The position numbers were made by a program, and so were the translations under genes. A model generated the notes under the pieces. That model saw only the letters and a list, made by a program, of their open reading frames with translations, was not told the DNA's origin and ran no database searches. From the NCBI GenBank assembly GCA_022508895.1, contig JAFLUH010000001.1, positions 77,265-141,264 of the forward strand: 64,000 nucleotides of DNA, read 5' to 3'. Below are positions 5,153-49,637 of the stretch, piece by piece. This DNA comes from Oscillospiraceae bacterium (GTDB lineage Bacteria; Bacillota; Clostridia; Oscillospirales; Ruminococcaceae). How positions within the stretch are numbered: position 1 is the stretch's first letter; every line of letters starts with the position of its first letter.

Positions 5153-5371
5153 ATTATAGCAAAAAATGAGCATGAAGCGAAGCGGAATGCGATTCCTCTA
5201 AAGGATAAAATAATCTTAAACATTAAAATCAATTGTTCCTCTTTACTTCGTTTAAGATTATTATAGCAAAGAAGAGCATGAAGCGAAGCGGAATGCGATT
5301 CCTCTAAAGGATAAAATAATCTTAAACATTAAAATCAATTGTTCCTCTTTACTTCGTTTAAGATTATTATA
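5153..5371 (-). repeat. tandem pair of a 106/107-bp element bounded by TATAAT; candidate miniature mobile element
   Basis: 5168-5265 is identical to 5274-5371 (98 bp); ATTATA (TATAAT on minus) at 5153, 5260 and 5366; homologous to 48250-48362. Confidence 0.92.
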
Positions 5372-7268: not shown

Positions 7269-7298
7269 GTTATATCAGAACTTATTCAATAAAAATTC

Positions 7299-7327
7299 TT
7301 GCAAAAATTGCGCTTATATGCTATAAT
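7299..7327 (+). promoter_or_regulatory. sigma-A promoter of ruvCAB
   Basis: TTGCAA-N17-TATAAT with extended TG. Confidence 0.7.
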
Positions 7328-7375
7328 AAATTGTTATAATAGAAAAGCTATGTTCTATAGGAAATAACATGTAAA

Positions 7376-48206: not shown

Positions 48207-48226
48207 ATTATTTCCGGCAAAAATAC

Positions 48227-48255
48227 TTGTAAGATTTAATGAAATATGCTATAAT
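48227..48255 (+). promoter_or_regulatory. sigma-A promoter of hom
   Basis: TTGTAA-N17-TATAAT with extended TG. Confidence 0.75.
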
Positions 48256-48362
48256 AATCTAAAAATAAATATAGTGGTTTATATGATTTTGAATTTTTAG
48301 ATTATTTTAGCGTTCAGCGGAATCACATTCCGCTTCGCTTCATGCTCTATTTATGCTATAAT
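48250..48362 (+). repeat. third copy of the 107-bp TATAAT-bounded element
   Basis: 90/113 ungapped identity to the reverse complement of 5153-5265; flanked by direct repeat TATGCTATAAT (48245-48255, 48352-48362). Confidence 0.9.
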
Positions 48363-48398: not shown

Positions 48399-49637
48399 AT
48401 GGTCAAAATAGCTGTGATAGGATACGGAGTTGTTGGTTCAGGCACCGTTGAGGTTTTTTATAAAAATCTTGAAAGCATAGAGAAAAAGATCGGCGAAAGC
48501 ATAGATATCAAATATATACTCGATTTAAGGGACTTTACAGGTACTCCTTACGATGAAAAATTCATCAAAACCTTTGATCCGATAATAAATGATGGCGAAA
48601 TAACGGTGGTTGCAGAGGTGATCGGCGGGATAAATCCCGCATATCAATATGTCAAATCATTGCTTGAAGCGGGAAAAAGTGTAGTTACCTCGAACAAGGA
48701 GCTGGTGGCAGAAAAGGGAGCGGAGCTGCTCCGTATAGCGCGTGATAAAAAAGTAAACTTTTTCTTTGAGGCAAGCGTAGGAGGAGGCATACCGATAATT
48801 CGTCCTCTTCATCATTGCCTTTCCGCCAATGAGATAGACGAAATAGCAGGTATCCTCAACGGTACTACCAATTTTATCCTTACAAAGATGATAAGTGAAG
48901 GAATGGCGTTTCACAAAGCTCTTTCCCTTGCACAAGAGCTTGGTTATGCTGAACGGGATCCTTCTGCTGATGTTGATGGTCATGACGCCTGCCGCAAAAT
49001 ATGTATACTTGCTTCTCTTGCATTCGGAAAGCATATTTATCCCAGAGATGTACACACCGAGGGAATATCCATGATCACCGCCGAGGACGTTCAATATTGC
49101 GATGATTTCGGAAGCAGAATAAAGCTTATCGGCTGGGCAAGCAAAAGGGACGATAAAGCGGCTGTTATGGTGTGCCCTGCATTTATTTCGGAATCAAGCC
49201 AGCTCGCAGGTGTAAACGATGTATTCAATGCAATACTTGTACGCGGCGATGCCACCGGAGACGTTATGTTTTACGGCAAAGGGGCAGGAAAGCTCCCCAC
49301 GGCAAGTGCTGTGGTATCAGATATCATAATGGCTGCCAAAATGAACGATAACAGCCGATCGCTTTACTGGGACGACTCGGAGCAGCCCTTTGTGCTCGAC
49401 AGAAACGAAATTGATAACAGGTTTTATCTAAGATTGATTTGCGAAAACAAATACGAAACCTTAAAGCAGGCAGAAAAAATGTGGGGCAGGCTCGTACTGC
49501 TGCACAGAAACGGCGAAGAGGAAAACGAGCTTGCTTTTGTGACCGAAAGCATCAACGAGAAGAAGTTTGAAAATGATTGTGCTCTGATTTCAGATACTGC
49601 TGAAATCAAAGGCAAAATAAGAGTACTTGGTTATTAA
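48399..49637 (+). CDS. hom: homoserine dehydrogenase
   Basis: GYGVVGSG, VVTSNK, FEASVGGGIP, GILNGTTNFIL, GKGAGKLPTASAV. Confidence 0.96.
   Translation: MVKIAVIGYGVVGSGTVEVFYKNLESIEKKIGESIDIKYILDLRDFTGTPYDEKFIKTFDPIINDGEITVVAEVIGGINPAYQYVKSLLEAGKSVVTSNKELVAEKGAELLRIARDKKVNFFFEASVGGGIPIIRPLHHCLSANEIDEIAGILNGTTNFILTKMISEGMAFHKALSLAQELGYAERDPSADVDGHDACRKICILASLAFGKHIYPRDVHTEGISMITAEDVQYCDDFGSRIKLIGWASKRDDKAAVMVCPAFISESSQLAGVNDVFNAILVRGDATGDVMFYGKGAGKLPTASAVVSDIIMAAKMNDNSRSLYWDDSEQPFVLDRNEIDNRFYLRLICENKYETLKQAEKMWGRLVLLHRNGEEENELAFVTESINEKKFENDCALISDTAEIKGKIRVLGY

Follow-up and report, generated by a model that had tools for sequence, protein, structure and literature searches.

The promoter region of hom in an Oscillospiraceae genome contains a repeat of about 105 bp that folds into a hairpin and recurs upstream of spoIIGA, with changes in one hairpin arm matched by changes in the other. 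The question that this locus raises is what such a repeat is conserved as: a protein gene, an RNA, or a fold of the DNA itself. The locus was analysed within a window of 64,000 nucleotides (C1:77265-141264 of a 2.37 Mb, 100%-complete assembly), by which we mean the whole stretch of DNA studied and to which unlabelled positions refer. Our favoured answer, with a probability of roughly one half, is that the stretch is a copy of a non-autonomous mobile element that is conserved as a DNA-strand fold, either single-stranded DNA or an extruded cruciform, rather than as a protein or RNA gene, and that follows a logic like that of the IS200/IS605 insertion sequences (IS). The pairing relationships described below also suggest that the element recognises promoter boxes by base pairing.

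The compensatory changes were noticed in a first-pass annotation of the DNA and stand as described: the arms are TAATCTAAAAA (from 48255) and TTTTTAGATTA at hom and TAATCTTAAAC and GTTTAAGATTA at spoIIGA, with two double changes, T-A to A-T and C-G to A-T. Hairpin 1 was also correctly placed as beginning inside the -10 hexamer of the host promoter (TATAAT, 48250-48255), but the start given to the element itself, 48253, is 2 nt off and the unit extends to 48362. The assembly as a whole holds approximately 20 copies of the repeat. Each copy in this genome directly adjoins, on its 5' side, a TATAAT preceded at 16-18 nt by a TTGnnn hexamer, and ends in TTTTTATGnTATAAT; the orientation is always sense, directly downstream of the -10 box. 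Each unit has a host TATAAT on its 5' side and its own TGnTATAAT at its 3' terminus, with which it rebuilds the host promoter box in front of the gene. At hom the host promoter scores 10/12 with the TG in a promoter scan, and the second TGCTATAAT stands 37 nt 5' of the ATG. The rebuilt promoter reads TTCGCT-17-TATAAT from the sequence, with the -35-like TTCGCT at 48334-48339. The two spoIIGA units lie head to tail and are 98% identical to each other and approximately 80% identical to the hom unit. A segment that had been called invariant, TCGCTTCATGCTC, corresponds to the -35-like hexamer and spacer of the rebuilt promoter and occurs exactly three times in the window (48335-48347, 5168-5180 and 5274-5286) where shuffles expect 0.07; it is exact in these three copies but invariant only among them, and differs between subtypes of the family.

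Of 101 species sampled in the genus, 18 have the repeat, while 200 genomes from other genera of the family gave chance-level fragments only. We aligned 80 distinct full-length units (alignment A1), 15 from this genome and 65 from at least nine other species, with a -10 box as columns 1-6. Three helices were tested on five measures against 500 shuffles and against partners slid by 1-3 columns. Across the three helices 86.9% of cells are paired, compared with 77.8% when shuffled and 27-44% when slid, and the covariation score is 0.247, compared with 0.100 shuffled and at most 0.07 slid, giving a sharp peak at register 0. None of the 500 shuffles reaches the observed value on any of the five measures. 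Hairpin 1 comprises columns 1-17 with 48-64, and its outer stem, the TATAAT box with ATTKTA, is invariant. Many double changes fall within the rest of this hairpin, so that the claim of a stem kept by compensating changes is borne out in the 80 units: pairs 10-55, 12-53, 14-51 and 15-50 have no unpaired cells at all, with 2-10 double changes each (Table 1). RNAalifold alone kept only the six best core pairs. The 15 dispersed units of this genome have arms AATCTC, AATCTA, AATCTT, AAACTC, AAACTT..GC and ATCCTTAGGC, each with its matching partner. These data support the element being under selection, or at least subject to a pairing-dependent process, for intramolecular base pairing.

The 28-nt loop of hairpin 1 had been described as the most diverged part of the element and proposed as a guide segment. 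The first description holds between the hom and spoIIGA copies, where the loops share 17/28 positions (61% identity, compared with approximately 80% for the whole unit), but not family-wide, where mean pairwise identity is 0.75 in the loop, 0.79 and 0.76 in the arms and lowest, at 0.45, in the 3' hairpin region. The second finds no support, as the loop is as conserved as the arms, holds GTAAAGAGGAAGA-ATTTATTTTAA, and has neither complementarity nor identity to its flanks beyond that of shuffles, apart from tandem neighbours. A purine motif within the loops, AAAGAGGAA (approximately 48273-48281 in hom; columns 25-33), is repeated as (T)AGAGGAAT approximately 47 nt downstream (columns 72-80). 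Both motifs are among the best conserved parts of the unit (identity 0.83 and 0.82), are explained by no helix, and could be protein-binding sites. A small open reading frame beginning with AAAGAGGAA as a ribosome-binding-site-like sequence, followed by ATG or TTG, was considered and rejected: the start codon is present in some copies only, the stops differ (e.g. MILNF*) and the length is not a multiple of three.

In the 3' half of the unit, hairpin 2 of the first-pass annotation pairs all of its 8 bp in hom and is interrupted by a single A.G mismatch in the spoIIGA copies, but it is perfect in the hom subfamily only and is not a conserved helix. Changes at column 84 are accompanied by changes at column 98 (GCAT/ATGC, GCAC/GTGC, GAAC/GTTC, GAAT/ATTC) and not at the hairpin-2 partner, and the copies concerned have lost the inner pairs of hairpin 2. 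The resulting helix 3 has double changes at all four of its pairs, for example CG54/AU15/UA8 at 82-100 and UA29/CG21 at 84-98. The 3' half as a whole takes at least four structural forms, one of which, the form that helix 3 takes in congeners, is a perfect 9-bp hairpin, GCATTTTGC-TTC-GCAAAATGC. Hairpin 2 and helix 3 were also considered as a pseudoknot or as alternative pairings, an idea rejected because covariation is found in helix 3 only. Likewise rejected was a pairing of the loop (GAAGTAAAGAGGA) with the 3' half (TCCGCTTTGCTTC), either as a long-range helix or as subterminal inverted repeats, which is good in one subtype and has no covariation.

The idea of a guide segment survives outside the loop, in the 8-9 nt directly 3' of hairpin 1, which are the reverse complement of the extended -10 and covary with it. 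In an unbiased scan of all column pairs the top mutual information, far ahead of any other, belongs to pair 65-113. Column 65 is the base, here called N', that follows ATTKTA just 3' of hairpin 1, and column 113 is the n of the terminal TGnTATAAT. The pair is CG36/UA20/AU15/GC3/other 6, giving 74 Watson-Crick pairs in the 80 units compared with 27.6 +/- 3.9 in shuffles. It lies within a helix of 8-9 bp formed by this anti-box with the -10, ATTKTAN'C(R) with (Y)GnTATAAT (columns 59-67 with 111-119), in which 89.4% of cells are paired, C66-G112 is invariant, and a T.T or G.T is constant at 62-116. Two to four N'/n pair types occur in each of four structural subtypes, and several within the 15 units of this genome alone, so the switch has happened repeatedly. 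One copy has AATAAT for TATAAT, and its column 64 has changed from A to T in compensation. Either copy of the -10 is available to the anti-box for pairing; the hom DNA fold uses the left box, by which the anti-box extends hairpin 1 past the left junction into the host TATAAT, and hom hairpin 1 folds as single-stranded DNA with z = -5.0. The covariation of anti-box and -10 is the strongest in the element, and goes beyond what the first-pass annotation had described.

Comparison of occupied and empty sites indicates how units come to lie at promoters. In the nearest congeners (G201 and G220, with Hom 85-86% identical) the hom promoter is AAAATACTTGTAAGATTTGCTAAAATATGCTATAAT, with a single -10 and no unit, running straight into the leader. 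A further congener, G229, has an IS200 copy that is empty, with CCGATATGGTATAAT|AGTAACGG upstream of tnpA (L115), and a 95-98% identical copy with three units between TATAAT and AGTAAGGG (L122). We then compared the n of the left box with that of the right. Among units in which the two are unequal, the right n pairs with N' in 11 cases and the left n in four. In the 37 first units, those flanked on the left by host sequence, the two n are unequal in 12, while the right n is complementary to N' in 34. The right box is therefore borne by the element, which is inserted 3' of the host TATAAT and leaves the target unduplicated. The left n, which belongs to the host, is nevertheless complementary to N' in 25 of the 37 first units, compared with 10.9 +/- 2.6 in shuffles (0/20000), with G.T in four more. 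In the 261 unoccupied TGnTATAAT sites of the genome n is spread fairly evenly over the four bases. Either the element selects boxes by their match to N', or insertions last only where there is such a match; on either account, pairing at the left junction matters.

One copy, C107:8099-8209, is found 3' of the stop codon of a gene for a 189-aa membrane protein (the TAA lies inside TGATATAAT) and before the terminator of that gene. As this is the 3' end of a gene, it is the sequence that is targeted and not promoter function. The anti-box and 3' box of this copy have decayed (GTTTTG; TATAATATGA), as expected where a promoter is not needed.

Table 1. Positions of the element, its host promoters and its helices in the window, with the composition of the covarying pairs of hairpin 1 in alignment A1.
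Feature	Position	Strand	Description
hom host promoter	48227..48255	+	-35 TTGTAA (48227-48232), 17-nt spacer, extended -10 TGCTATAAT (48247-48255), host n = C at 48249
Element unit upstream of hom	48256..48362	+	107 bp; directly after host TATAAT; own TGCTATAAT at its end
Hairpin 1, hom copy	48250..48309	+	Outer stem TATAATAA (48250-48257) with TTATTTTA (48302-48309)
Hairpin 1 covarying core, hom copy	48258-48266 with 48293-48301	+	TCTAAAAAT with ATTTTTAGA; loop 48267-48292
Anti -10 segment (anti-box) ATTTTAGCG	48304..48312	+	Alignment columns 59-67; reverse complement of extended -10; N' = G at 48310
Hairpin 2 of the first-pass annotation	48316..48334	+	AGCGGAAT-cac-ATTCCGCT; perfect 8 bp in hom; not a family-conserved helix
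Helix 3	48325..48345	+	ACAT (48325-48328) with ATGC (48342-48345); columns 81-84 with 98-101; segment overlaps TTCGCT
Element-borne extended -10 TGCTATAAT	48354..48362	+	Faces hom (ATG at 48399); n = C at 48356, partner G at 48310
spoIIGA host -10 hexamer TATAAT	5366..5371	-	Directly 5' of first unit
spoIIGA unit 1	5260..5365	-	106 bp; ends in TGCTATAAT (5268-5260)
spoIIGA unit 2	5153..5259	-	107 bp; ends in TGCTATAAT (5161-5153), just upstream of spoIIGA
Hairpin 1 pair 10-55	columns 10, 55		CG72 / UA5 / UG3
Hairpin 1 pair 12-53	columns 12, 53		CG71 / UA4 / AU3 / UG2
Hairpin 1 pair 14-51	columns 14, 51		AU66 / GC10 / GU4
Hairpin 1 pair 15-50	columns 15, 50		AU76 / GC2 / GU2
Hairpin 1 pair 16-49	columns 16, 49		CG62 / AU8 / UA3

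A mobile element of this kind could work as follows. The anti-box would act as a guide that base-pairs with the extended -10 both at the 3' end of its own unit and at the target, and a structure-specific enzyme would cut and join 3' of the TATAAT without duplicating the target. Each unit would then present a fresh target at its end, on which further units could stack as tandem arrays. Such arrays, of 3-6 units with a period of 104-109 bp, are found in several congeners. In one of them (L061) the unit types alternate, which suggests that block duplication also occurs.

At the ends of IS200/IS605 elements short guide segments pair with the cleavage sites, in the order guide, hairpin, cleavage site. 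The present element resembles this group (IS608, ISDra2 and the palindrome-associated transposable elements, PATEs) in being inserted 3' of a short specific sequence with no target duplication, in having subterminal hairpins and a cleavage-site-like copy of the target at its 3' end, and in having an internal segment, 5' of the 3' hairpin, that is complementary to the terminal site, so that base pairing rather than protein contacts would set the specificity. It differs in the length of the putative guide, 4-5 nt in IS200/IS605 and 8-9 nt here, with apparently one guide for both ends, and in the position of the guide, which is 3' and not 5' of the left hairpin. The hairpins of the element are AT-rich, unlike those of IS200 copies in the genus, and the genome has no Y1 transposase. 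By analogy, we would say with about even confidence that the element works like IS200/IS605, but membership of the group fails on the enzyme.

Other families of small repeats share some of these properties. REPINs, in which two inverted repetitive extragenic palindromic sequences (REPs) form one long hairpin, lie mostly between convergent genes and come with a single-copy REP-associated tyrosine transposase, RAYT (Bertels and Rainey 2011, PMC3116915). Like the element they are non-coding hairpin repeats of approximately 100 bp in tens of copies, sometimes in tandem and vertically persistent in a lineage, and compensatory changes in their stems have been read as a sign that the fold matters. 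The element however has a three-helix fold, always stands at a -10 box in sense orientation and is not accompanied by a RAYT (PF01797). The Correia repeats of Neisseria (CREE/NEMIS) and promoter-bearing miniature inverted-repeat transposable elements (MITEs) are also small non-coding repeats that bring or create sigma-70 promoters before unrelated genes, but Correia repeats have 26-bp terminal inverted repeats and a TA duplication, neither of which is found here, whereas the element targets and regenerates the -10 box itself. Terminal inverted repeats of the classical MITE type, as in Correia or RUP, are absent, the termini AAYCTCAAAC and CTCTTTTTA not being inverted copies of each other, and although AAACGAAGTAAAGAGGA resembles TCCGCTTTGCTTCGCTC in reverse complement at a subterminal position, covariation lends this no support. 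A survey of 'putative mobile promoters' notes that how most such repeats move is not known (PMC3575422). Integron attC sites and other folded single-strand sites are similar in that structure is kept while sequence is not, with covarying arms and a variable central part, and recombination at a short core can leave arrays of units. In contrast to attC, the units here contain no gene cassette or open reading frame, and the arms CTCAAAC/GTTTGAG do not fit, by eye, the RYYYAAC/GTTRRRY cores.

It is possible to go one step further than a mobile DNA fold and to regard the element, tentatively, as the substrate of an undescribed guide-directed insertion system, in which the 8-9 nt anti-box, its variable N' included, reads the extended -10 either as folded single-stranded DNA or through the RNA of the captured promoter, in the manner of a bridge RNA.

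Several observations count against the element being mobile as a DNA fold. Searches for Y1 HUH transposases (PF01797) and IS110 found no mobilising enzyme. All the genomes examined are metagenome-assembled genomes (MAGs), from which insertion sequences are often missing. The first-pass annotation had proposed recognition by an HUH- or recombinase-type enzyme, but PF01797, which covers Y1 HUH transposases and RAYTs, has no match in this genome and does not co-occur with the element, being present in four of 18 element-bearing species and in 25 of 83 others. As candidate partners, IS110 was rejected for want of clear co-occurrence, and IS200 because its copies in the genus have GC-rich end hairpins that bear no relation to those of the element, and a different flank. 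We saw neither excision products nor circle junctions, nor any insertion that is polymorphic within the species. The one other assembly of the species, which is also the only other one with the same Hom protein, is 99.95% identical, carries the element and is identical at hom. Many of the aligned units are array neighbours and not independent samples. Both spoIIGA units have N' = T and n = C, which are unpaired and break the N'/n rule. A strand test, with 125 G.T and 63 A.C cells of which 42 A.C are at a single pair, is ambiguous as to which strand folds. Finally, the anti-box/-10 helix and helix 3 also lie within the transcript from the host promoter, and both may have a role in RNA.

This last point belongs to the alternative in which RNA is the selected structure, the unit being a structured 5' leader or a small RNA of approximately 95 nt made from the host promoter, in which the top of hairpin 1, the anti-box/-10 helix and the 3' hairpin with the U-run behind it would serve in stability, termination, insulation or in trans. 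We consider this alternative fairly unlikely. The element is certainly transcribed, as it is always in the sense orientation directly downstream of a -10. In standard promoter geometry a -10 at columns 1-6 places the start near column 13, and column 13 is an invariant A, as a start site would be. For hairpin 1 the same geometry counts against the alternative. Pairs 9-56, 10-55 and 12-53, which covary, are on the upstream side of the expected +1, as is the outer TATAAT stem (columns 9-12 are 3-6 nt past TATAAT), and they are therefore outside an RNA from the adjacent promoter, contrary to the earlier suggestion that the element folds as an RNA starting at +1. The dispersed single units of this genome show covariation at the lower-stem pairs 9-12/53-56 and also the best pairing at these positions, better than arrays, in which read-through could provide them. 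G.U wobbles are common at 17-48, 62-116 and 67-111. One subtype has as its 3' hairpin a perfect stem of 9 bp with TCTT(C/T)TTAT behind it, and one such hairpin was flagged as terminator-like by a scan, but three of the four subtypes lack the terminator-like hairpin or have only a weak one, and no part of the unit is less conserved than its 3' half. The downstream genes (glmS, spoIIGA, ddl, hom, metA, pyrC, purE, dusB, a response regulator, a PII-like gene and others) are mutually unrelated, with no common theme or regulon. Comparison with Rfam 15, which had been proposed as a check, gave no family match, the threshold being E <= 10 for the surroundings of the hom copy and E <= 1 for four loci with subtypes A, B and C. 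With the start site placed by promoter geometry, the evidence favours hairpin 1 being a fold of DNA.

A DNA fold could also be conserved without being mobile, if the unit were a domesticated promoter module in which anti-box/-10 pairing lets the rebuilt promoter extrude a cruciform or fold, so that its strength answers to supercoiling or to a structure-binding protein and arrays tune expression. Each unit does have the parts of a promoter, with a -35-like TTCGCT or TTCGCA, a 16-17 nt spacer and TGnTATAAT, the pairing partner of the box lies on the same strand approximately 45 nt upstream, and the element persists before housekeeping genes across species. Such a module would however leave unexplained the exact placement 3' of a host TATAAT, the copy at the 3' end of a gene, the patchy distribution among species of the genus and the match to the host n, and we regard it as rather improbable. 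There is only a slight chance that the pattern is mutational, with intrastrand template switching (quasi-palindrome correction), an established mechanism at inverted repeats, or gene conversion copying changes between arms that are only some 30-50 nt apart, conversion being plausible in arrays such as that of L061: the hairpin must still form in vivo, and neither the host-derived left n matching N' in independent insertions, nor the constant T.T or G.T at 62-116, which should have been corrected to a perfect complement, nor the absence of unpaired core cells in 80 units while the loop drifts, is explained.

Further variants of the element and its distribution were recorded. A pattern scan of one genome per species matched only gut MAGs, from mouse and other animal samples such as rabbit; the records are labelled Ruminiclostridium sp., Oscillospiraceae or Clostridia, except for two labelled Bacteroides sp. 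Viral contigs gave no match to the element. Within this genome, a pattern scan for other families of the same architecture returned only ordinary promoters and one variant subfamily. This is found at C168:2469-2543 and C57:34970-35032, where arms TATCTTAGG/CCTAAGATA, quite different from the usual ones, come after the host TGATATAAT and lead into ATTGTA-T-C. Its 55-nt loop consists of three mini-hairpins (AAAATGCC-TTTC-GGCATTTT, GAAATGC-TGC-GCATTTC and CAGGC-TTC-GCCTG), its short 3' half has no hairpin, and N'/n is T/A. Internally deleted units occur at C17:3194-3262, C128:5788-5874 and C1:65894-65991. One of the three, 5' of a YfcE-like phosphoesterase gene, is without hairpin 1, another, 5' of metA, is without the 3' hairpin, and the third is reduced to TGCTATAAT-AAAATCAAAC-TCCGCTTTGC. 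Many congener arrays close with a unit cut off past the right arm. An autonomous version, with a gene between the two halves, was looked for with half-models, which returned only truncated units, and was rejected.

The congener with the most units, G229 (MGBC108887), carries 1-6 units in the tnpA promoter -10 at seven of its ten IS200 (Y1_Tnp) loci, among them L116, L117, L119, L120, L122 and L124, while L115 is the same IS without units; most of the array-bearing tnpA genes have decayed. The tnpA promoter here is just another landing site, which was later amplified with the IS, and expression of the transposase may be raised by the arrays. A five-unit array in the same genome is followed by a weak RpsF-leader-like match (L059:3519-3603; 25.8 bits, compared with a gathering score of 37) and preceded by a tRNA. 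In the window itself, the promoter regions of two unrelated genes (7291-7329 and 48219-48257) are 74% alike over 39 nt (AAAAAT.CTTG.AA...ATATGCTATAATAA), which is probably only the common strong-promoter consensus (TRTGnTATAAT).

In this genome, transcription of hom and spoIIGA now proceeds from stacks of two or three promoters. Small hairpin repeats of the REP, REPIN, Correia or BOX type are common, yet the sequence of very few reveals how targets are chosen, as it does here through N' and n. If the element is guide-directed, its specificity for variants of TGnTATAAT would be programmable by one base, and promoters would be its natural landing sites. It would then represent a natural system that homes to the -10 boxes of sigma-A promoters and duplicates the promoter while leaving the gene expressed, giving a direct mechanism for "mobile promoters" and tandem promoter arrays, with a short recognition rule that could be re-targeted.

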